A stretch of 64,000 nucleotides of DNA from an uncultured bacterium (GCA_963701025.1 OY969557.1:368622-432621), one strand, 5' to 3'; positions 894 through 50,098 are shown, counted from the first letter of the stretch. Notes: generated by a model from the sequence alone, not told the origin. Numbers and translations are program-made.

Positions 894-1378
894 ACCCGCT
901 CACGGTTCAGGCATACTTGAAGGGGGCAACGTACCCTTCCTCCTTGACGAGGCTGATCGGCATCGCCGTGTCCAATCGCGCGACGCGCGCCATCATCGGC
1001 GCCCTCGCGAGCGCGCGCGATAGGATATACCGCACACCCGCCGATCTCACCAAGGAGATCAGTAGGCGTATGCATCCCGGGTAGCCGTTGCACTTCAGGG
1101 TGGGATTCAAGATATTCTGTTGACAGAATAGGATAATCTTGTCTAACGATATTTCGGGCGGATGCGTTCCGTCTATGCGCGCGGGAGAATTGAGCCGTGT
1201 TTTTGTCATGGCATTTTTTGACCACAAATGATCTGAAAAAACCCTTGCCATGAAGGCGGCGTTTGATACAATTTTCGCCGATGCCGGTCAGTCTTATCCG
1301 TGCACTGTGTACGGATAACTGGTCGGTTTTATATTATCAGCCAAACATGCGAAAAATAATCTTGCATAAAAAATAATA

Positions 1379-3223
1379 ATGAATCCTCATAGGTTAGCTC
1401 TAGTATCAACGCTCTACGCAATACCGATTATCATCACCGCGCTATGGATCGCCACCCCTGGACGGGCATACGCATCGTCCGACATCTCGATCTGGTGGCC
1501 GACCGACGGCGCTCACATTTCATCCGTCCAGCCTTTCAAGGCGCTCGTCGACGGCATGGCACTCTCTGACTATTCCATGTACTGGCAGGTGGACAACGGC
1601 CAGCTCAATCAGATGAGCGACAACGCGACCGACGCTCCGCACAAAGAAGCGTCCGTCGACGTCTCCGGATGGCACTGGAGCGGTAGCGGTGCATATCAGG
1701 TGAGCTTCGTCGCCAAGGACTCCGGCGGCAATACCATAGCCCAAAAACAGGAGACTATATATGTAGATCAGCCTGCGGCGAATATTCCGACCCCCTCAAG
1801 TGCACCTGCTCCGGTTGCCCCAGCACCGACGAGCATACCCGCACCGACAAACGTGCCCATCAATGCATCCGCGTCGATCTGGTGGCCGACCGACGGCGCT
1901 CACATTTCATCCGTCCAGCCTTTCAAGGCGCTCGTCGACGGCATGGCACTCTCTGACTATTCCATGTACTGGCAGGTGGACAACGGCCAGCTCAATCAGA
2001 TGAGCGACAACGCGACCGACGCTCCGCACAAAGAAGCGTCCGTCGACGTCTCCGGATGGTCATGGCATGGCGCCGGTCCGTACGCCGTCAACTTCGTGGC
2101 GAAGGACAAGAACAGCTCCGTCATCGCCTCTAAAGGCGTGAACATATACGTCGACCAGCCAGCGGCGAGCGCTCCGGTGACGGCGCCACCTGCTCAAATT
2201 TCCGCCGATCCTATTCAAGTCCAGGCCGCAACCGCACCGATCGCGCCCGTACCGACAAGCGCGCCTGTACCGACAAGCGTCCCTATCACGATCGCGACTC
2301 CCCCATCGACGGTTCCTTCCCAACCCGCAACGGCCATTTCCGGCGAGGGCGACTCGCTCTCCGGCCTCTCTTTCTACGTCGATCCGACAAGTGAAGCGGC
2401 AATCCAGGCGACAGCTTGGAGCGTCTCCGATCCGGCGGGCGCGAGCGAGATGGAAAAGATCGCCATTGAGCCAGTGGCGAAATGGTTCGGCGACTGGAAC
2501 ATCGACGTGCGCTCTGACGCGGAGAATTATGTAGACGCGGCCGTGTCGGCCGGCGAGACGCCTATTCTCATCGCCTATGACATACCCGAACGTGATTGCA
2601 ACGGATACTCCGGCGGAGGCGCTTCGAGTCCGTCCGCGTATACAGCCTGGATACAAGGCCTAGCTTCTGGTATCGGTAGCCGACGTGCGGTCGTCATTCT
2701 GGAGCCAGACGCTTTGGCTATGATGGATTGTCTGTCGCCGATCGATCAAAGCACGAGACTCGGCCTTCTTAGCTCCGCGGTCGCCACGCTCAAAGCCAAC
2801 GGCAAAAATACCGTCTATATAGACGCCGGCCACTCGGACTGGATAGGAGCTTCGGATATGGCCGCGCGCCTCTCCGCCGCCGGCGTCGCTGGAGCGGATG
2901 GATTCTCCTTGAACGTCTCCAATTTCTACACGACGGCGGACCAGATCGCCTACGGGACAGCGTTGTCGTCTCTCATCGGAGATAAGCACTTCGTCGTGGA
3001 CACTGGCAGGAACGGTCTCGGGCCGGACGGCGATCTCTGGTGTAACCCTCCAGGACGCGCCCTCGGGACCAGGCCGACGACGAATACCGGCAATCCGCTT
3101 GCTGACGCCTTTCTCTGGCTGAAGACGCCGGGCGAGTCCGACGGAGCCTGCAACGGCGGCCCGAACGCGGGCGTCTGGTGGCCGGATTACGCGCTCGGTC
3201 TCGCGGAACGGGCAGCTTACTAG
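1379..3223 (+). CDS. Secreted glycoside hydrolase family 6 (cellulase/endoglucanase). It has an N-terminal signal/TM, two tandem ~100-aa Ig/CBM-like repeats, a Pro/Thr linker and a C-terminal GH6 catalytic domain.
   Basis: The catalytic domain has the GH6 signature segments YDIPERDCN, VILEPDALA, DAGHSDW and FLWLKTPGESDG, which are collinear with Thermobifida Cel6A-type enzymes. Confidence 0.85.
   Translation: MNPHRLALVSTLYAIPIIITALWIATPGRAYASSDISIWWPTDGAHISSVQPFKALVDGMALSDYSMYWQVDNGQLNQMSDNATDAPHKEASVDVSGWHWSGSGAYQVSFVAKDSGGNTIAQKQETIYVDQPAANIPTPSSAPAPVAPAPTSIPAPTNVPINASASIWWPTDGAHISSVQPFKALVDGMALSDYSMYWQVDNGQLNQMSDNATDAPHKEASVDVSGWSWHGAGPYAVNFVAKDKNSSVIASKGVNIYVDQPAASAPVTAPPAQISADPIQVQAATAPIAPVPTSAPVPTSVPITIATPPSTVPSQPATAISGEGDSLSGLSFYVDPTSEAAIQATAWSVSDPAGASEMEKIAIEPVAKWFGDWNIDVRSDAENYVDAAVSAGETPILIAYDIPERDCNGYSGGGASSPSAYTAWIQGLASGIGSRRAVVILEPDALAMMDCLSPIDQSTRLGLLSSAVATLKANGKNTVYIDAGHSDWIGASDMAARLSAAGVAGADGFSLNVSNFYTTADQIAYGTALSSLIGDKHFVVDTGRNGLGPDGDLWCNPPGRALGTRPTTNTGNPLADAFLWLKTPGESDGACNGGPNAGVWWPDYALGLAERAAY
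1487..2059 (+). repeat. Intragenic tandem duplication: two 186-nt blocks (1487-1672 and 1874-2059) that are 100% identical, spaced 387 nt apart, inside the GH6 gene
   Basis: Direct sequence comparison. The flanking parts of the two protein repeats are diverged, so the identical core suggests recent gene conversion or a duplication/assembly collapse. Confidence 0.9.
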
Positions 3224-4812
3224 GTCCCGATATGCTGTAGCGCTTCGGACAAAGACATCGAATCATACCGGAGCTTGTACCCATATAGGTCCAGGCCAGG
3301 AGAGAAATGTTCCTCGTCGATCCGCTCGAAATGCGTGTCGAAATAGAGGCGCACGCTCTCTTCATATCCCTGATCGTATGACAGGAGCAACCATAGGGTC
3401 TGATGCGCGTCCTCGATAGTCGCCGCATCTTGGGCTAGTTCCGTCGGAGAATATTGCGGTATCGGTCCGACGGCATACCGGTCCCAGATCGGCAGAGTCT
3501 CCACCCGGACCGGCCCATTATAATAATACTCGAACGGATATATGGTGAATGGCGCCGAGAGGGCGATCACGTCCTCGGGCGTGGCATGCGCGGAAAGATA
3601 GAGCGCGGCGGCGCGATAGTCCTCCTTGACCGGCGTATCCGCGCTCACCGCTTCGAAGGAAAGAGTCGAGATCATGGCGATCGTCAGGAAGACCTTCAGG
3701 TACCGCTCAAGCCGCGGCGGATAGGTCGACAGCACCCAGCCGATGAGGAGATAGAGAGGTGGCAGTGAGAGCACCAGATAGCGCGTCAGATAGACGGGTT
3801 TCCAGGCGTAGCTCACCGCGAATGCCAGGATGACCGGCACGGCCACGCTCAAGAACAGATATATCGTCTGGGGCGGCACGCTTCTGCCCCTCCGGAGCGA
3901 CAGGAAGATGAGGAGGACGGCGAGTGGCCATGCCGACAGGATGATGGCGTTCGCGCGGTCGCCCTGGAAGCCGAAGATGAATTGCGAGAATGTGTTGAAC
4001 ACGTCTATGGTCGAAGGGCGCGTCAACGCCGGCTGGGTGTTCGCGGCCGACCCGAGGTGCACCACCAGGTACAGCCAGGGCGCGAAGGCCGCGGCGACCA
4101 CGAGGGCGGCGAGCGCGAGATTCCTGAAGGCACGCGGCGGGAAGCTCTTCCGATAGGCTAAGAAGAATCCGACCTGGGCCGCCAGATTGAAGGCGAAGAA
4201 ATAATGAGTGAACATGCCCGCGACCGCCGTGACGGCATAGCCGATCCAGACGGAGCGCGGGACGGCGCCTTTTTCGTTCCGGCTGTCGGTGAACATCCGC
4301 ACGAAGAAATATTGGTTCAGCACGGTGAATAGGGCAAAGAGGGTATACATGCGCACCTCATTGCCGTACCAGTTCAAGAAAGGAGATACGGCCACCATGA
4401 GCGCCCCGAACAGGCCGATTGTCCGGGAAAAAGCCTGCTTGCCGAGCGCGTACGTAGCCGGGATGAGAAGAGCGAGGAAGATGAGCGACGGAATCCTCTC
4501 GGTCGGCACGGCGTTGCCGAAGAGGACCTGCCAATAATGGAGCATGAGATGGTAGAGCGGGACATGGACATCCTCCGCGACGACGTTGAACATCGCCGGG
4601 ACGCTCCGGCTGGTCTGCCAGATGCTTTGGGCTTCGTCGAGACGCAGGCTCTGATTCATGAAGAAGAGGGCGGAGAAGAGCAGAGTGAGGGCGGCGAACA
4701 GCACCAATAGCCATCGGGTCCCCGCAGGCGAATAGCCGCGGCCGCCGTCGGGGCCGCTCGATCCCCCATCATCATTCTCCATCTCATTCGTTGTATATAT
4801 GTCAGTGCTCAT
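3220..4812 (-). CDS. Glycosyltransferase family 39/83-like (ArnT/PMT_2 family) polytopic membrane protein
   Basis: About 12 predicted TM helices and an N-terminal GT-C-type loop with a DEAQ-like motif (LRLDEAQ). It is co-directional and adjacent to the GT2 synthase. Confidence 0.7.
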   Translation of the reverse strand: MSTDIYTTNEMENDDGGSSGPDGGRGYSPAGTRWLLVLFAALTLLFSALFFMNQSLRLDEAQSIWQTSRSVPAMFNVVAEDVHVPLYHLMLHYWQVLFGNAVPTERIPSLIFLALLIPATYALGKQAFSRTIGLFGALMVAVSPFLNWYGNEVRMYTLFALFTVLNQYFFVRMFTDSRNEKGAVPRSVWIGYAVTAVAGMFTHYFFAFNLAAQVGFFLAYRKSFPPRAFRNLALAALVVAAAFAPWLYLVVHLGSAANTQPALTRPSTIDVFNTFSQFIFGFQGDRANAIILSAWPLAVLLIFLSLRRGRSVPPQTIYLFLSVAVPVILAFAVSYAWKPVYLTRYLVLSLPPLYLLIGWVLSTYPPRLERYLKVFLTIAMISTLSFEAVSADTPVKEDYRAAALYLSAHATPEDVIALSAPFTIYPFEYYYNGPVRVETLPIWDRYAVGPIPQYSPTELAQDAATIEDAHQTLWLLLSYDQGYEESVRLYFDTHFERIDEEHFSPGLDLYGYKLRYDSMSLSEALQHIGT

Positions 4813-4820
4813 ATCTCATA

Positions 4821-6398
4821 TCATTCGATGGAGGCTTCGCTCCAGGTATCGGGCACCGTCATGACCTTGAGCTTGACTTCCCTCTTTGCCGGCAAGCCGC
4901 TCGGCAGGGCCGCGCCGACGTATTCGCTGAAGACAGTGGTGTTCAGGATGACCCAGGCGAAATTGGAGACGAGCGAAGCGGTCGCACCCGTATGGCTGAT
5001 CATGAAGAACGCGCCGGTATACGCCAGAAAGAGGTACGCGATCTGCGGCACGACCAAGCTGACGAAACTGCCGGCGACCCGCCGTTTGGACGTCACCGAG
5101 AAGCCGTTCTTCCTGCGGAAGATCGCCGCTATGATGGCCGATATATGTATATTGAATCCGGCCATGGAGAATGCCAGCGACCTGAACGAGTATGAGAAGT
5201 TCGTCGATGCCTGAAGGACGTATATGGTCGTCAGGATATACGGCAGGAAGATGGCGGCCAAGAGCATCGTCGAAATGTTGAGCGGCACCAGGCCCGTGTA
5301 GAAGAACACGACGGGTATCATGGCGTCTATGAGGACCACCACGCCGGAAAAGAAATACCCGATCGCGGAGAGATATTGCACGCGCTGGCCCAAAGAGAGG
5401 CCGCGCTTGAACAAGAAGTTATATTGGAACAGCACGTCCAACGACCCGCGCGCCCACCTGAACTGTTGCTTGTAGTAGGACAGAAAATCCTCCGGCGCCA
5501 GCCCTTCCGCCAGCACTTCCGGGACATAGCACGACTTCCAGCCGCGCTGGTGCAGGAACATGCCGGTGACGAAATCCTCGGCGATGCTCTCCGTGCAGAT
5601 GTTGCCGACTTCGCGAAGAGCCTCCCTGCGGATGACCATGTTCGTGCCGCACATCGTCGTGGCGTTCAGCCTGTTCCTGCCTTTGCATATGGCGCCGAAG
5701 AAGAGCGCCTGCTGCTCCCACGATCCCGCGGCGACGCCGTTCACCGCATGGTTCCGGTAGTATTGCGGCGACTGCACGAATCCCATCCGCGGATCGGCGA
5801 AATAGCCCGCGGTCTTCTTCAGGAAATCCCGGTGCGGCACATGGTCGGCGTCGAAGACCGCCACGAGCGGGCTCGCCGTCTCGGCGAGAGCGTTATTGAT
5901 GTTACCGGCTTTGGCGCCGCCGCCGGACTGCCTCGTGATGCAGCCGATATGGAGCTTCGCGGCGACCATCTCGATGTCCATCCAGTTGCCCTTATTCGCC
6001 ACATACCCGTCATTCAGAAGGTAGACCTTGAAATCAGGATATTCCATGGCGATGGCCGCTCGGGCTGTCTCCTCGACGATATCGGCCGGCTCGCCGCAGA
6101 CCGTGATGAAGACGTCGACACTCGGAGTGCAAGCGGCGTCGAACGGAGGCATATAGTCCATGTCCCAGACGGTGTACAAAAACGTGAACAACTGCCAGAC
6201 ATGGAAGACTTCCCCCGCGATCAGTATCCAAAAGAGCGCCACATCGCCACGCGGGAAGAGGAAGAGAATGCCCACGAAATAGACCGCAGCGAGGACCGCG
6301 TTGAAGCAGACGAGCGGTTTGGAGACTCTGCCTTGCAGGAAGTCCTCGCGCGCGTCAGGCATCTTCTCTATTTCGATTTTTTCCGTGTCGAACGTCAT
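4821..6398 (-). CDS. Processive family-2 glycosyltransferase, cellulose synthase (BcsA)-like. No obvious PilZ domain.
   Basis: D,D,D and QxxRW (QQFRWARG) motifs with flanking TM helices. The track ORF start at 6713 overlaps GH8 in another frame, so a start at ATG 6398 (MTFDTEK) is preferred. Confidence 0.8.
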   Translation of the reverse strand: MTFDTEKIEIEKMPDAREDFLQGRVSKPLVCFNAVLAAVYFVGILFLFPRGDVALFWILIAGEVFHVWQLFTFLYTVWDMDYMPPFDAACTPSVDVFITVCGEPADIVEETARAAIAMEYPDFKVYLLNDGYVANKGNWMDIEMVAAKLHIGCITRQSGGGAKAGNINNALAETASPLVAVFDADHVPHRDFLKKTAGYFADPRMGFVQSPQYYRNHAVNGVAAGSWEQQALFFGAICKGRNRLNATTMCGTNMVIRREALREVGNICTESIAEDFVTGMFLHQRGWKSCYVPEVLAEGLAPEDFLSYYKQQFRWARGSLDVLFQYNFLFKRGLSLGQRVQYLSAIGYFFSGVVVLIDAMIPVVFFYTGLVPLNISTMLLAAIFLPYILTTIYVLQASTNFSYSFRSLAFSMAGFNIHISAIIAAIFRRKNGFSVTSKRRVAGSFVSLVVPQIAYLFLAYTGAFFMISHTGATASLVSNFAWVILNTTVFSEYVGAALPSGLPAKREVKLKVMTVPDTWSEASIE

Positions 6399-6456
6399 AG
6401 ATAATATAAGATGATTCCAAATCCATCCTTTATTTTTAATCGAGGATCCAAAACTT

Positions 6457-7713
6457 TCAGGAATTTTCTTCGACGACTGGGTCCCAAAGGTCTGGTAGCT
6501 CGCCGTCATAAAGCGCCATGCCGAACCATACCCAATTGTCGTCGTAATAGCCGAGCGGGTTTTTCCATGAATACGAGTCCGGGTCATACAGCGCGACGAG
6601 CTTGGTGTCGTATATCTCTTTTGCCGCGGCCGGATCCATGGCCATGAACGCGCCGATCGTCCCGCCGTACATGGCTGATGACTCGACAAGAGGGGCCTGT
6701 GGCACGCCGTCATGCTGATAATCGGCGTAGAGGACCCTCCGCGTCTGCCACTGCGTCTCGAGGAATGACATCGAGCTCAAGATGTCAAGCGCCCGCGGGT
6801 CCTTGTTCCATTGCCAATCCAAGGCGATCCTCCATGGCACGCGCAAGGCATCATAACCAAAATCTGTCTTCAACCCCCCGGCATCGGCTCTCGTCCGCGA
6901 CGGGGGCATGAGCGACGTACCCGTCCGGCTTTCCGACAGCCAGTCGGGCGGTAGGCCATCGCTCTTCGGCTGGTCGAGTTCCGCCTGCATGCTCCGTTTC
7001 AACACCGCGTAGCTGTCGTCGACTAGCCCATTCCAATCATGCTTGGGGTCGATCGTAGCGAACATGCGGTATGCATACGGGGCGAAGTAGGATGGGTCGA
7101 CGGTAACGAACTGGGGTGAATCCTTCTCGATGTCGTCCGAGGTAATATACGGCTTGCCGCCGACCATGACGACTTCGCTGTCCCAAATCGCTATGGCGAC
7201 GTTCTGCGCCGCCTGAAGATATGAGACGTCCCTCCATCTTGCGTAGGCGAACATGAGCGCCGTCGCTATATCAGTGTCGGCGTCGCTCGCCGAGTTCTGT
7301 CCGTTCACTGCGGTGAGGATGCCGTACGTCCCGTCCGCTCGCTTTCCGAATAGCCATGAGAACAAATAACCGTTCTTAAACTTTAGGTTGTCCTCCGTCC
7401 ATTTCCAGCTGGCATCGAAGGTCGTATGGTCGTCGAGCCACACCGCCCGTAACATGGTATAGCCTTCACCTTCCGACGTCGTCACGCCGCCGCGCTGGAC
7501 GTCCATGGTGCGGCTCGTCCCCTGCTCGAGATACGCCGCCTTGTACCTCTGCCAGAGCGCGTCTAGCATCTCTTTGTTTGAAAAGACGAGCGGAGTCTTG
7601 GTGCTTTCAATGTCCCGATATGCGGCGACTGCCGCTATCAATACGACGACGGCACAGATCACATACCCTATTATCTTGATATTCATGGATGGATATTGAC
7701 ACGCGCGCACCAT
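6457..7713 (-). CDS. Glycoside hydrolase family 8 endoglucanase (BcsZ-like), N-terminal membrane anchor
   Basis: TSEGEGYTM and DADTDIA motifs match GH8 catalytic signatures. It lies upstream in the same operon as the BcsA-like GT2. Confidence 0.75.
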   Translation of the reverse strand: MVRACQYPSMNIKIIGYVICAVVVLIAAVAAYRDIESTKTPLVFSNKEMLDALWQRYKAAYLEQGTSRTMDVQRGGVTTSEGEGYTMLRAVWLDDHTTFDASWKWTEDNLKFKNGYLFSWLFGKRADGTYGILTAVNGQNSASDADTDIATALMFAYARWRDVSYLQAAQNVAIAIWDSEVVMVGGKPYITSDDIEKDSPQFVTVDPSYFAPYAYRMFATIDPKHDWNGLVDDSYAVLKRSMQAELDQPKSDGLPPDWLSESRTGTSLMPPSRTRADAGGLKTDFGYDALRVPWRIALDWQWNKDPRALDILSSMSFLETQWQTRRVLYADYQHDGVPQAPLVESSAMYGGTIGAFMAMDPAAAKEIYDTKLVALYDPDSYSWKNPLGYYDDNWVWFGMALYDGELPDLWDPVVEENS

Positions 7714-7816
7714 CGCCGACCTTGCTTTTGACGACGCGGCTTACTTTTTCTTACACAGATTTAACATGATTTTAATATATGTGTAAGAAATCCTGACGCA
7801 CGGCGTCACAAAGGCT

Positions 7817-8965
7817 ATGCGCATATCGCTTTTTTTTCCCGCATACAACGAAGAACGTAACATCGCACTGGCTATCGCGCAGGCGAAGGCCGTCTTGAAC
7901 GCTATCGCCGAAGAATATGAGATCATAGTCGTCGATGACGGTAGCACCGACAGGACAGGCGACATCGTCGACCGTCTTTCCGTCTTCGACGAGAAGGTGA
8001 GGGTCGTGCGTCACTGTCTGAACAGGGGCTATGGGGCAGCGGTGCTCTCCGGCATCAGGGCGGCGCGTTATGAATGGGTGTTCTTCACCGATGCCGATCT
8101 ACAATTCAGGCTCGAAGAGATTCCCCGCCTGATCGCCTATGCGCCAGAGTATCCTGTCGTCATCGGCTACCGGGCGCCTCGGCGCGATCCGCTGATGCGT
8201 CTCATCAACGCTAAGGGATGGAACATACTGAACCGGGTCATGTTCGGTCTCAAGGCGCGTGACATCGACTGCGCTTTCAAGCTTTTCCGGCGAAACTTGG
8301 TTTCCAACCTCCCCATGCGGTCAGGCGGAGCAACCGTCTCCGCCGAGATGCTGATCCGCCTACAGAGGAACAACGTCCCGATCAAAGAGGTTCCTGTGAC
8401 TCATCTGCCTCGTAAGAACGGTATCGCCACGGGAGCGAAATTACCCGTGATCGTCCGCGCTTTCAGAGAGCTCTTCGGGTTGTATATAAGCGGCCTCGGG
8501 GGTCGGGACACGGTCTATGTGCAAGCCGGCAAATACGCCGCCGTGGGGATTCTCAATACCTTCGTCGATATTGGATCATATATAGCCCTGACAAGGTCTA
8601 TGCCGTTCTTCGGTATGCACATCCTCGTCTCGAAATTCGCTACCTTCTTTGTAGGAGCTACGGCAAGCTTCGCCCTAAACCGGCGCTTCACCTTCTCCCT
8701 GCGATCGCGGCCGACCGTATCTGAAACCGTAAGATTCTATTCCAGCACGATTGTTCCTGTGACTATCAACGTGGCTTCGCTGTATGTGTTCAATATCCTT
8801 CTCGGCATATATGATCTTATAGCCGTCGGTATGTCGACTGTGATGACTTTTGCTGTAGGTTTCATCCTATCGAAATTCTGGATCTTCAAAGACAGCTTGG
8901 CCGAAGAAAGCGAGCGGCAACGGCTGTCAGCGCGTACCGCTGCTACCATATCAAATACGCCGTAA
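7817..8965 (+). CDS. GT2 glycosyltransferase (dolichyl/polyprenyl-phosphate sugar synthase-like) fused to a C-terminal GtrA-like membrane domain
   Basis: The N-terminal GT-A fold shows FPAYNEE...VVDDGSTD...TDADLQ motifs. The C-terminus has four TM helices typical of GtrA. Confidence 0.8.
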   Translation: MRISLFFPAYNEERNIALAIAQAKAVLNAIAEEYEIIVVDDGSTDRTGDIVDRLSVFDEKVRVVRHCLNRGYGAAVLSGIRAARYEWVFFTDADLQFRLEEIPRLIAYAPEYPVVIGYRAPRRDPLMRLINAKGWNILNRVMFGLKARDIDCAFKLFRRNLVSNLPMRSGGATVSAEMLIRLQRNNVPIKEVPVTHLPRKNGIATGAKLPVIVRAFRELFGLYISGLGGRDTVYVQAGKYAAVGILNTFVDIGSYIALTRSMPFFGMHILVSKFATFFVGATASFALNRRFTFSLRSRPTVSETVRFYSSTIVPVTINVASLYVFNILLGIYDLIAVGMSTVMTFAVGFILSKFWIFKDSLAEESERQRLSARTAATISNTP

Positions 8966-17928: not shown

Positions 17929-18000
17929 GCCCTCGTAGTTCAACGGATAGAACAACTCCGTCCTAAGGAGTGGATGTAGGTTCAATTCCTGCCGAGGGTA
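17929..18000 (+). tRNA. tRNA-Arg (anticodon CCT)
   Basis: Manual fold: acceptor GCCCTCG/CGAGGGT (G1:T72), anticodon stem ACTCC/GGAGT, loop GTCCTAA, T arm GTAGG-TTCAATT-CCTGC. No encoded CCA. Confidence 0.75.
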
Positions 18001-18038
18001 CTCTACACAGTAGCGCTTGCGAAATAGAATCTGCTATA

Positions 18039-18738: not shown

Positions 18739-18850
18739 ACCGGATCTTCATCGTTTCTTTATCCGATCTTCATCGTTTCTTTATCCGATCTTCATCGTTT
18801 CTTGAGCCTTTCTTGAGCGTTTCTTTATCTGCGCCTGATAAGCTGACCGC
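18739..18850 (+). repeat. Array of about nine phased 11-bp direct repeats (cgtttctttat / ccgatcttcat / sstttcttgag). This is copy A; copy B is at 26119-26208.
   Basis: Read directly. The 11-mers form 22-bp super-units. A similar block (~85% identity) recurs 7.4 kb away. Confidence 0.85.
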
Positions 18851-47357: not shown

Positions 47358-48365
47358 TTATAGCAGGTATGCCGATCTTAACTTCTCGATTTGGGCTTTT
47401 AGTTTATGACTATTGCCGTGACTGATCAGACCGAGATAAGACTGTACGGTCTCCGCTTTTCCGCCTTTTTCCTCGATCGTTCTAAACATCTTCCGCTTCG
47501 TTGCAGTTCGTAGCACACGATGATCCGTAAAATTGATCCATCCGAGGTAGTCGACGCCGGAGGCAATGGTGCGTATGGATATTTTCTTGGGATGTAAATG
47601 AAGGTGTAATCTGTCGTTCAAAAAAGATCGTATCTGCGGAATGAGCCCGACAAGCCAGTCCCGATCTGATGAGAAGAGAACGAAATCATCGGCGTAGCGG
47701 ATATAGTATTTTGCTTTAAGTTTGTGCTTCACGAACTGATCGAACTCATTCATGTAGATATTGACTAGGAGCTGTGAAGTGAGGTTGCCGAGAGGTAGAC
47801 CGATGCCGTCGGCAGTCGAGTGAAAGCTGCCAATGATTTCAGAGAGGAGCCAGATAATATCCTTGTCTGGAATATAATCTTTGATGATTTCAACGAGTAC
47901 TCTCTGGTCAATAGATGCGAAGAATTTCTTGATGTCGCATTTAAGCACCCAAGCAGTCTGCGTGTGATTCTGCGTCACTTTGTATGAAAAATCTCGGAAT
48001 CGGTTTACTGCTTCATGTGTCCCCTTTCCGAACCTGCATGAAAATGAATCCGCAATGAATATCTTGTCGAAAAAGATATGGAGTTCACGATAGATTGCGT
48101 GATGAAGTAGCCTGTCTCTCACGCTCGCCTTGTGGATGTTCCTCGGCTTTGGGTCGGATATATTGAACGCTTCGTATGATGAATGCTTGTAAGTCTTTGC
48201 CACAAGGTCATTATGAAGCGAAATTATATTGTCCATCAGATTTCGTTCGAATGTCTGAACGTCTTTTCTGGCCCGTTTTCCTTTCACGAACTCTTTCCAT
48301 GCCTCGATGATATTTTCGAGGGAAATGATATGATTGTAGCCATGTCCAAATTGAATCCGTCGCAT
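47358..48365 (-). CDS. DGR-type reverse transcriptase
   Basis: RT domains 1-7 with YADDFV. The DGR-diagnostic motif 4 is GIGLPLGNLTSQ (SQ instead of the group II SP). The N-terminus (FNISDPKPRNIHKASVRDRLLHHAI...SFSCRFGKGTHEAV) is typical of DGR RTs. No maturase or endonuclease domain. Confidence 0.85.
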   Translation of the reverse strand: MRRIQFGHGYNHIISLENIIEAWKEFVKGKRARKDVQTFERNLMDNIISLHNDLVAKTYKHSSYEAFNISDPKPRNIHKASVRDRLLHHAIYRELHIFFDKIFIADSFSCRFGKGTHEAVNRFRDFSYKVTQNHTQTAWVLKCDIKKFFASIDQRVLVEIIKDYIPDKDIIWLLSEIIGSFHSTADGIGLPLGNLTSQLLVNIYMNEFDQFVKHKLKAKYYIRYADDFVLFSSDRDWLVGLIPQIRSFLNDRLHLHLHPKKISIRTIASGVDYLGWINFTDHRVLRTATKRKMFRTIEEKGGKAETVQSYLGLISHGNSHKLKAQIEKLRSAYLL

Positions 48366-48378
48366 GTCAGAGAAGTCG

Positions 48379-48389
48379 CCCCCCCCCCC
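48379..48389 (+). repeat. C11/G11 homopolymer in the ~40-bp gap between the divergent avd and RT starts
   Basis: Read directly. Confidence 0.9.
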
Positions 48390-48406
48390 ACGGATTTTTA
48401 CCTGTA

Positions 48407-48760
48407 TTGAGTAAGGTGAAAGAAACATATTTGTTGTGGTATGGATATTACCAGATTTTACCCAAGGCACACAGGCATTCCCTTGGACAGAGGATTGACG
48501 GCCTTTTTATCGAAGTCATAGAGGCCATAACTGCCGCCAGTTTCTTGTCTCCCATTGAAAAACATCCGTATGTCCGGTTGGCCATCAAAAAGACCGACAC
48601 GCTCAAGGTCTTGCTCATGGTTCTGTGGGAGACCAAATCGCTTGATGACAAGAAATATATAGCCCTGTCGGTGAAGTTGGACGAGATAGGCAAGAATCTG
48701 GGCGGCTGGAACGGACAACTCACAAGACAAAACTCCCCCGTAAAAACGAGGGAGAAATGA
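48407..48760 (+). CDS. Accessory variability determinant (Avd)-like four-helix-bundle protein, encoded on the strand opposite to the RT, TR and VR
   Basis: 117 aa. LPKAHRHSLGQRIDGLFIEVIEAITAAS and a C-terminal KLDEIGKNLGGW resemble bAvd (…IAEVGRILGSWI) and the TIGR02436 family. TTG/GTG start. Confidence 0.7.
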   Translation: MSKVKETYLLWYGYYQILPKAHRHSLGQRIDGLFIEVIEAITAASFLSPIEKHPYVRLAIKKTDTLKVLLMVLWETKSLDDKKYIALSVKLDEIGKNLGGWNGQLTRQNSPVKTREK

Positions 48761-48766
48761 AGAGAG

Positions 48767-48890
48767 TTGCGGACACCGCAGCCGGATTGTTGGAGTTCCA
48801 GTCGTTGTCGAGCCAGTTGTTGCTCCAAATCCACCTGTCGCCGTTCCAGTTGAGGTAACGGACGTAGAGGTTGCCGTCAGAGTTGCGGTA
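48767..48890 (-). repeat. DGR template repeat (TR)
   Basis: 124 nt, 111/124 identical to the VR. On the minus strand it reads ...YRNSDGNLYVRYLNWNGDRWIWSNNWLDNDWNSNNPAAVSA with many AAC codons. Confidence 0.85.
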
Positions 48891-49171
48891 TCGTACGGGA
48901 CGCCTTCCGTGCCACCACCCCTTGAATGCTCTCAGGGTTGAATCGTATCCGGCATCGAAATGCCCTAGCGCCTCGTACCAAGTATGTTCATTTTTTAATG
49001 AAGTTCTGCATGCACCACTCTACCCAAAACCTTGGTCTTGCCCAAAGGGTCAATGTGCTCATTGAGATACGCTCGATGCATGGATACTGGATTCGGTAGC
49101 GAGAAACCGTGGTCGCCCGCATATTCACCTACTACCGCACTCGATTCTAGCATATTTATATAAATGACAAA

Positions 49172-49193
49172 CCCCAAGCCGAATTGCTTGGGG
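49172..49193 (-). terminator. Perfect 8-bp hairpin (ccccaagc-cgaatt-gcttgggg) between the target gene and the TR
   Basis: Read directly. On the minus strand it is followed by tttgtcattt. Confidence 0.45.
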
Positions 49194-49290
49194 TGAAGTT
49201 ATACGCATATCTTCAAGAGCGTTTGTTTTCTTATCGCAAGGACAAAGGTCAAAGTGACTGAAGCAGTCCACAGTAACCAAGTCCAGAGTG

Positions 49291-49911
49291 CTAACTTGCG
49301 GACACCGCAGCCGGATTGTTGGAGTGCCAGTCGCCGTCGAGCCAGAGGCTGCTCCAAAGACACCTGTCGCCGTGCCAGCTGAGGTAACGGACGTAGAGGT
49401 CGCCGTCAGAGCGGCGGTAAACCGTTCCCCAGAAGAAGATGTAGCGGGTGTTCCCATTGCCATCAACCTTCCAAGAATCCGGAATCAACTGCGGATGCTC
49501 ACGGAGGTAATCCAGAACATTGGCGTTCAGCACCGGTTGCTTCGACACTTCCTTGCGGAGGTCGTTGCCCTCGATGCGTCCACCTTTCTTCTGCGGCTTC
49601 GACAAGTAGAAGTCAATCTTCTTGCCGTCGAGGTAGAGGTCGGCTCCCCGGCGTTCGAGCTTGGCAACCTTGCCCTTCTGGTGTTCTTCCACCTTCCAGC
49701 CGTCAGGCAGAAAGGGGTCGGCACCGAGGTCAATTGCATACTCGACGGGCTTGATTTCATACAAGCCGAGTTTTACGCCCCTCACTTGGCCGAGGAAATC
49801 CCCGACGGTGAGCGCTTTGACTTCTTCCAATGATTGGAAACCGTTGCGGTTGAATGCGTGTTCCAGCTCTTGAGCCAGACCGACACCGAGTGTTAACCTG
49901 TTATTATCCAT
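49291..49911 (-). CDS. DGR target protein with the C-terminal variable region (C-type lectin/FGE-like fold inferred)
   Basis: The C-terminus is ...YIFFWGTVYRRSDGDLYVRYLSWHGDRCLWSSLWLDGDWHSNNPAAVSAS. The VR occupies the last ~41 codons. Start chosen at ATG 49911 (MDNNRL). Confidence 0.75.
   Translation of the reverse strand: MDNNRLTLGVGLAQELEHAFNRNGFQSLEEVKALTVGDFLGQVRGVKLGLYEIKPVEYAIDLGADPFLPDGWKVEEHQKGKVAKLERRGADLYLDGKKIDFYLSKPQKKGGRIEGNDLRKEVSKQPVLNANVLDYLREHPQLIPDSWKVDGNGNTRYIFFWGTVYRRSDGDLYVRYLSWHGDRCLWSSLWLDGDWHSNNPAAVSAS
49296..49419 (-). repeat. DGR variable repeat (VR) at the 3' end of the target gene
   Basis: 13 mismatches to the TR, 12 of them at TR adenines (coding strand): TR AAC codons become CGC, GAC, AGC, CAC, GGC and CTC. 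The 3' GC-rich segment with the tgcgg-aca-ccgca hairpin is shared (IMH-like). Confidence 0.85.
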
Positions 49912-50098
49912 AACGTGTTCTTTCTCTGTTTCGTGGACATGTCCTTTTCGAGGACTGGTCCAAGCTGTTGGGCTCAAGCTTCGTGCTTTTGCCACAGCAG
50001 AGAATGGCCTATAAATAAGCCGCTTTCTGCCGTGGCAAACGCAAGTTAGGCTATCAAGGAGCTTTACTCTGCCATTATACTACCAATTAGTACCAATG

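Follow-up and report, generated by a model that had tools for sequence, protein, structure and literature searches.

A 186-nt exact repeat in the tandem modules of a predicted secreted GH6 glucanase gene: probable intragenic gene conversion

Near-identical tandem repeats maintained by intragenic conversion are known from the streptococcal Rib/alpha-C proteins, the staphylococcal repeat proteins and the cellulosomal cohesin arrays. Endoglucanases also accompany the enzymes that make cellulose, as BcsZ pairs with cellulose synthase in Bcs operons. In Streptomyces, the GH6 enzyme CslZ, which is without accessory binding modules, is encoded by a gene adjoining cslA in the arrangement cslA-glxA-cslZ (PMC9040799). 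For the Ig-like, X1 and Fn3-like accessory modules found in other glycanases, spacer or 'stored linker' roles have been proposed (PMC3966859). Here we describe a gene that touches on all these systems: it is found in a stretch of 64 kb from an uncultured bacterium (hereafter, the window), it encodes a GH6 enzyme next to a cellulose-synthase-like glycosyltransferase, and it carries two accessory modules that share a long tract of identical DNA.

The GH6 gene and its exact direct repeat

The features of the gene, all on the plus strand, are the following:

1245..1272, +, sigma-70-like promoter candidate, TTGCCA-16-TACAAT with TG (consensus scan, pattern match only)
1379..3223, +, gene for a predicted secreted modular GH6 glucanase, 614 aa plus stop (ORF, Pfam PF01341)
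1379..1474, +, predicted signal peptide or N-terminal anchor, aa 1-32 (read from the translation)
1487..1765, +, module 1, predicted Ig-like β-sandwich, aa 37-129
1487..1672, +, identical block, copy 1 (exact match), 62 codons, strands A-E of module 1, probable donor
1673..1765, +, diverged tail of module 1 (E-F loop, strands F and G), ~65% nt identity to tail 2
1766..1873, +, Pro/Ala/Thr-rich linker 1 (translation)
1874..2152, +, module 2, aa 166-258, apparently a chimera of a module-1-type head and a module-2 tail (sequence comparisons with relatives)
1874..2059, +, identical block, copy 2 (exact match), probable conversion recipient
2060..2152, +, diverged tail of module 2, closest to the module-2 tails of relatives P0202 and P0199
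2153..2350, +, long Pro/Thr/Ala linker 2 (translation)
2351..3220, +, GH6 catalytic domain, aa 325-614, short endoglucanase-type (Pfam PF01341, 1uoz match)

The product is predicted to be a secreted GH6 β-1,4-glucanase with two tandem N-terminal Ig-like modules. Its leader, as read from the translation, has a hydrophobic core and the residues A-Y-A preceding the predicted cut. The catalytic domain was recognised by PF01341 (Glyco_hydro_6) at aa 345-594 (1.1e-61, 209.7 bits vs a cutoff of 27), and its best solved relative is Cel6 of M. tuberculosis (1uoz, 4e-76, aa 325-612). The motifs YDIPERDC and LEPDAL, which correspond to the GH6 patterns D-x-P-x-R-D-C and E-P-D-[AS]-L, are present and align with the same motifs in 1uoz; the catalytic roles of the aspartates in these motifs are established for GH6 (PMC9040799). 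The promoter candidate lies ~100 nt upstream of the ATG, and the scan returned 2 sites vs 1.1 expected. Linker 1 is weakly similar to part of linker 2 (1802-1862 vs 2228-2288, 72%). Within linker 2, Tandem Repeats Finder also detected an 18-nt unit repeated twice at 2243-2278 with one mismatch, encoding APVPTS twice, which is a small slippage-type repeat of the GH6 gene.

The segment 1487-1672 is repeated without a single difference at 1874-2059. This exact direct repeat of 186 nt, the longest in the window (the runner-up measures 39 nt), has an offset of 387 nt, equal to 129 codons, so that both copies lie in frame inside one ORF; blastn and tblastn found neither the block nor the module a third time in the 64-kb window. 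The 5' edge of the block coincides with the start of the module, and upstream of it there is no homology, as the signal peptide comes before copy 1 and a linker before copy 2. Directly 3' of the block, where the peptides HWSGSGAYQVSFVAKDSGGNTIAQ and SWHGAGPYAVNFVAKDKNSSVIAS are encoded, identity is ~65% at the nucleotide level over the remaining ~95 nt of each module. The earlier note on this DNA had described a core 100% identical at the DNA level between flanks that have diverged, quoting these two peptides, and it was right on all these points.

Other repeats occur elsewhere in the window. A 22-nt unit is present in four copies (87% matches) at 18743-18829, ~750 nt downstream of tRNA-Arg (17929-18001). 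Moreover, a diversity-generating retroelement, of a kind common in CPR bacteria, was recognised on the minus strand at 47358-49995, with the following parts:

47358-48470, -, reverse-transcriptase ORF with the YADD motif
48767-48890, -, template repeat
49296-49419, -, variable repeat, at the 3' end of the target ORF
49291-49995, -, target ORF

Inside the 124-nt repeat of the retroelement, the mismatches coincide with adenines of the template. In a comparison of 134 nt, 14 of the 23 mismatches are A>G (7), A>C (5) or A>T (2), and the others are outside the repeat.

Origin of the identical block

The strongest indication on the origin of the block comes from its codons. In the head of the two modules, that is, in the block, 62/62 codons are identical, while of the 21 tail codons that specify the same amino acid only 11 are identical and the other 10 differ synonymously, so that synonymous sites in the tails are nearly saturated. 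As a reference, nucleotide identity between tandem modules is 54-74% in eleven related genes, and in these relatives ~40-55% of the codons for identical amino acids are also codon-identical, a value close to saturation. By our own estimate, the chance of finding 62/62 identical codons in such conditions is ~0.5^62, or ~2e-19. A further comparison is offered by a GH12 enzyme with three modules (P0063, L034:2880-3806), whose tandem modules share 71-79% protein identity (69-77/97 residues). Only 27-41 of these 69-77 amino acid-identical codons are identical, and synonymous sites are saturated; this gene thus has the pattern expected of strong purifying selection without conversion, in contrast to the window. 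Since modules with similar protein sequences are near synonymous saturation elsewhere, as in this case, constraint on the protein cannot explain the block. For the same reason, the protein similarity of tandem modules in this family usually does not come from conversion, and checks at the DNA level are needed.

Could the identity be held instead by selection on an element embedded in the DNA or RNA, such as a structured RNA, a binding site or a mobile element? We consider this barely credible. The only Rfam matches of the window are two tRNAs, so that no Rfam family falls in the region; the RNA fold is unexceptional (z = -1.0, with 39/200 shuffles folding at least as well); and inverted repeats were not found. 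With all three checks negative, a structured RNA or a mobile element in the block was rejected. In addition, the block is ordinary module-coding sequence, homologous to relatives over its whole length, and its nucleotide sequence is not conserved among them, given the 54-74% identity of their tandem modules.

To place the two modules with respect to their relatives, we took both modules of 112 related two-module GH6 proteins and aligned all of them to the module HMM; for each head and each tail, the nearest neighbour was then taken from another protein. For 182/224 heads and 188/224 tails, this neighbour came from the matching position, first or second. The grouping of nearest neighbours by position indicates that the duplication predates the divergence of these lineages and is ancient. 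With the first 21 loci, the identity of the tails alone did not suffice for an assignment of orthology, which became clear with the 112 two-module proteins. In the closest relative, P0202, tail 1 of the window matches module 1 at 20/31 residues and module 2 at 15/30, and for tail 2 the counts are 21/30 with module 2 and 15/31 with module 1. Similarly, tail 2 matches the module-2 tail of P0199 at 20/30 and its module-1 tail at 13/31, and, for tail 1, each of the seven best matches is a module-1 tail.

These results bear on the possibility that the 387-nt unit was duplicated in tandem recently and that the tails alone then diverged quickly, for example by positive selection. Compatible with such an event are the period, which is divisible by three, and the weak similarity that the linkers retain. 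Nevertheless, the tails differ synonymously too (10/21 amino acid-identical codons), each of them is nearest to the tail at the same position in relatives, and the two-module architecture with positional orthology is widespread. A recent tandem duplication is contradicted by the synonymous differences and the positional orthology of the tails, and we regard it as highly improbable.

The head behaves differently from the tails. The two heads of the window are identical at 62/62 residues, vs 36-49/62 in comparisons with the heads of the nearest relatives. In P0202, the shared head agrees with module 1 at 49/62 residues and with module 2 at 36/62; P0199 is ambiguous (44/62 vs 46/62). In 89 of 109 informative relatives, module 1 is nearer to the shared head, and in the other 20 it is module 2. 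At the site where module 2 of the closest relatives reads G-G-x-H-K-E, the shared head has D-A-P-H-K-E. As the shared head is of module-1 type and the tails keep their module-1 and module-2 signatures, module 1 is the probable donor, and the head of module 2 was probably overwritten by that of module 1, a direction that rests on amino acid similarity over 62 residues to distant relatives. Judged against these relatives, roughly 22-26 residues of module 2 have changed from the ancestral state. Mapped on the structural model, the tract takes in strands A-E and stops in the E-F loop.

Similar, shorter tracts were found in the relatives. In 140 adjacent module pairs, the longest identical amino acid run has a median of 6; the window, with 62, is the maximum, followed by 44, 41, 32 and 25. 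L036 contains a 77-nt exact tract and a 44-codon head with 3 synonymous differences, across an intervening Fn3 domain, and the GH6 gene of L003 a 34-codon tract with 3 synonymous differences. One GH6 gene was assembled independently from three samples (L038, L039 and L040) with 0 nt differences; in it, a 71-nt exact tract is flanked by diverged sequence. On the basis of these tracts, the partial homogenisation of tandem modules is recurrent and real in the family, and the window offers the longest and youngest example. Stretches of strongest coding conservation (MYWQVDNGQL; PHKE...GWxW) are often part of the tracts and may plausibly have served for pairing in recombination.

Repeats of this kind also raise the question of the assembly. 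No record of the exact protein was found in public assemblies, and the nearest relatives in genome, metagenome and large protein searches are only 56-66% identical. One concern is that an assembler or polisher homogenised heads that were very similar but not identical. In fact, an exact repeat of 186 nt exceeds the usual short-read k-mers, so that pairs or long reads were needed to span it, and near-identical copies can be merged in a way that hides a few true differences. That such repeats disturb assemblies is suggested by L003, whose contig starts inside module 1 of its two-module GH6 gene (L003:1-221), which carries a homogenised tract; this start is consistent with assemblies breaking at repeats of this type. 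Homogenisation of this sort, however, erases few differences only and cannot make identical a head that would have been ~60% identical (36-40/62 in relatives), and the 71-nt exact tract of the related gene recurs in three independent assemblies. We therefore hold this explanation to be unlikely.

A gross misassembly, in which a module was falsely duplicated or collapsed, or strains were joined in a chimera, so that the real gene has one or more than two modules, appears very unlikely. Repeats are classic sites of misassembly, GH6 relatives with one and with three modules exist, and extra collapsed units made of block, tail 1 and linker are conceivable. On the other hand, the block joins four unique sequences (signal peptide and tail 1, linker 1 and tail 2), and the assembled path is the only one that uses all of them; a false duplication would have copied the tail too. 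The product is in frame and has the commonest architecture, as 132 of the 308 module-bearing proteins fetched have two modules. The collapsed or duplicated assembly offered as an option in the earlier note thus finds little room, because each copy has its own upstream sequence and its own, different tail. Even a few merged SNPs or collapsed extra units would leave the case for recent conversion unchanged.

Taken together, paralogues that are closer than orthologues in the tract, synonymous identity, and flanks that keep their orthology make a recent intragenic gene conversion, and not a recent duplication, the best explanation of the block, to which we assign a probability of about 80%. The term recent is relative, since by our own estimate zero differences over 186 nt allow up to ~1.6% divergence at 95% confidence. 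The earlier note had spoken of ongoing gene conversion: the orthology of the tails and the synonymous identity speak for conversion, but one recent event is enough and nothing calls for an ongoing process.

The following course of events can be proposed. The two modules are old paralogues, ~40% diverged before the event, and a recent, non-reciprocal homologous recombination would have copied the first 62 codons of module 1 over module 2. A break or a stalled fork in module 2, with module 1 as the repair template, is a possible trigger; the molecular route may have been RecA-dependent repair or template switching, and initial pairing could have occurred through conserved coding stretches such as MYWQVDNGQL. 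The tract begins where the homology of the modules begins and stops in the loop between strands E and F, and what is left is the 186-nt exact direct repeat followed by tails still ~35% diverged. The repeat may now ease the in-frame loss or gain of one 387-nt unit.

The repeat is real and it is a fresh example of a well-known process, concerted evolution; being a textbook case, the finding changes little. Its practical consequences are that a perfect repeat of this length can break or distort assemblies and that it permits modules to be lost or gained in frame. The repeat also draws notice to an unclassified, well-folded family of Ig-like modules without a Pfam model, and this family and its gene cluster are more interesting than the conversion itself.

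The module family and the glycan gene cluster

The module, of ~93 aa, was modelled by AlphaFold2 as a confident Ig-like (E-set) β-sandwich, with the accessory modules of bacterial mannanases as its nearest counterparts. It reaches the threshold of no Pfam or NCBIfam family. Below threshold, Pfam returned PKD in 11/33 members (best E 2.8e-4) and Big_1 in 8/33, as well as Ig-like families; in the comparison with PKD, Big_1 and Bact_surface_Ig-like, the module of the window scored 13.7 bits vs a cutoff of 23.5. A profile search of the PDB with the module alignment gave nothing significant, the best match being antibody constant domains (E 0.024). No CBM family is present among the Pfam matches of the module, even at E <= 1. 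Therefore, of the earlier suggestion that the modules are carbohydrate-binding or Ig-like units, the Ig-like fold is borne out by the AlphaFold2 model, and a match to a CBM family in sequence is not.

A word-index search with one module retrieved 2 fragments only and was repeated with the alignment; the exhaustive HMM search of 1.84 billion cluster representatives then yielded 547 proteins at E <= 1e-3. The genomic matches are almost all from Patescibacteria, together with single MAG contigs of Chloroflexia and Verrucomicrobiia. Invariant or near-invariant in the family are W-W-P, Y-x-M-x-W-x-V, H-K-E, W-x-W and Y. The module lies N-terminal to GH6 domains in 1-3 copies, C-terminal to GH113-like enzymes, after a GH5 domain in 5 copies (P0062), after the GH12 domain of P0063 in 3 copies, and before a GH8-like domain (P0069; our own reading of the sequence). 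The copy number, which the earlier note expected to vary between strains, does vary from 1 to 5, but between distant relatives only.

GH113-like enzymes encoded near the GH6 cluster of relatives (L001:1648-3519(-), L004, L011-L018, L020, L021) carry one module at the extreme C-terminus, often after CARDB/Wzt_C-like, PA14 or NPCBM domains. There is no GH113 partner gene with a module in this window.

The exclusive association with β-glycanases makes a role of the module in glycan binding or positioning plausible; as a pointer to carbohydrate binding, the presence beside five GH families is only suggestive.

Around the GH6 gene, a predicted cluster for a cellulose-like glycan spans 1379-8965. 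Its further members are:

3220-4812, -, PMT_2-type GT-C
4821-6713, -, BcsA-like processive GT2
6457-7713, -, GH8
7817-8965, +, GT2-GtrA

The GH6 gene (1379-3223, +) is convergent with the minus-strand set of GH8, GT2 and PMT_2 genes. The order GH6-PMT_2-GT2 is kept in at least seven MAG loci of Patescibacteria (L001, L002, L005, L007, L008, L012, L013), with 45-69% amino acid identity. The window, too, probably comes from a genome of Patescibacteria. As annotated, the ORFs of GT2 and GH8 share 257 nt. Alignments of relatives to the GT2 begin only at ~residue 108-122, which places the real GT2 start probably at an internal Met near 6398; this start would remove the overlap with GH8.

The position of the GH6 gene beside a BcsA-like GT2 resembles the pairing of endoglucanase and cellulose synthase, from which a processing of self-made β-glycan can be suggested. 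By analogy, the GH6 enzyme may act on a glycan that the cell produces rather than on plant cellulose.

A broader reading, which as a whole we find doubtful, is that the modules form a new glycan-binding or cell-surface-attachment family, largely of Patescibacteria, borne by secreted β-glycanases (GH5, GH6, GH8-like, GH12, GH113) that accompany a cellulose-synthase-like cluster, with conversion and copy change tuning the handling of the glycan. If true, recurrent conversion and in-frame changes of copy number would tune or vary the way in which an episymbiont handles its own surface glycan or that of its host. In any case, a module that decorates at least five families of β-glycanases, mostly in Patescibacteria, and in many instances adjoins a conserved cellulose-synthase-like cluster, is a reasonable target for the definition of a new domain or CBM family, and for asking which glycan these reduced bacteria make or cut.

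Comparison with known systems

As in the repeat proteins that undergo concerted evolution, the paralogous modules of the GH6 gene resemble one another, within a tract that has sharp limits, more than they resemble their orthologues, the identity extends to synonymous sites, and the in-frame period permits the gain and loss of copies. Unlike the repeat arrays, the gene has two copies only and the tract covers two-thirds of the module; moreover, its modules are old and were ~40% diverged beforehand, so that the result would be a chimeric module and not a uniform array.

With regard to the module, Ig-like accessory units of ~90 aa are likewise represented by the central domain of the GH5 mannanase of Thermotoga petrophila (6tn6), and are present in Man26A of Cellulomonas fimi (2bvt) and in CbhA of Clostridium thermocellum (X1 modules; 3pdd, 3pdg, 3pe9). 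Like the module of the window, they are found beside or between the catalytic domains of β-glycanases and linkers, but sequence identity to them is only 14-18%. The family of the window has its own motifs (WWP, Y-x-M-Y-W-Q-V-D, P-H-K-E, G-W-x-W), unlike the X1 and Fn3-like modules, and, unlike the modules of 6tn6, 2bvt and X1 type, it is mostly confined to Patescibacteria.

For the enzyme, the nearest GH6 catalytic domain is that of M. tuberculosis Cel6 (Cel6/CelA1). Like the GH6 gene of the window, the gene for Streptomyces CslZ adjoins a cellulose-synthase-like GT2; CslZ, however, has no accessory binding modules and the GH6 protein of the window has two Ig-like ones, and the partner that GlxA represents in the Streptomyces csl locus is replaced here by a PMT_2-type GT-C and a GH8.
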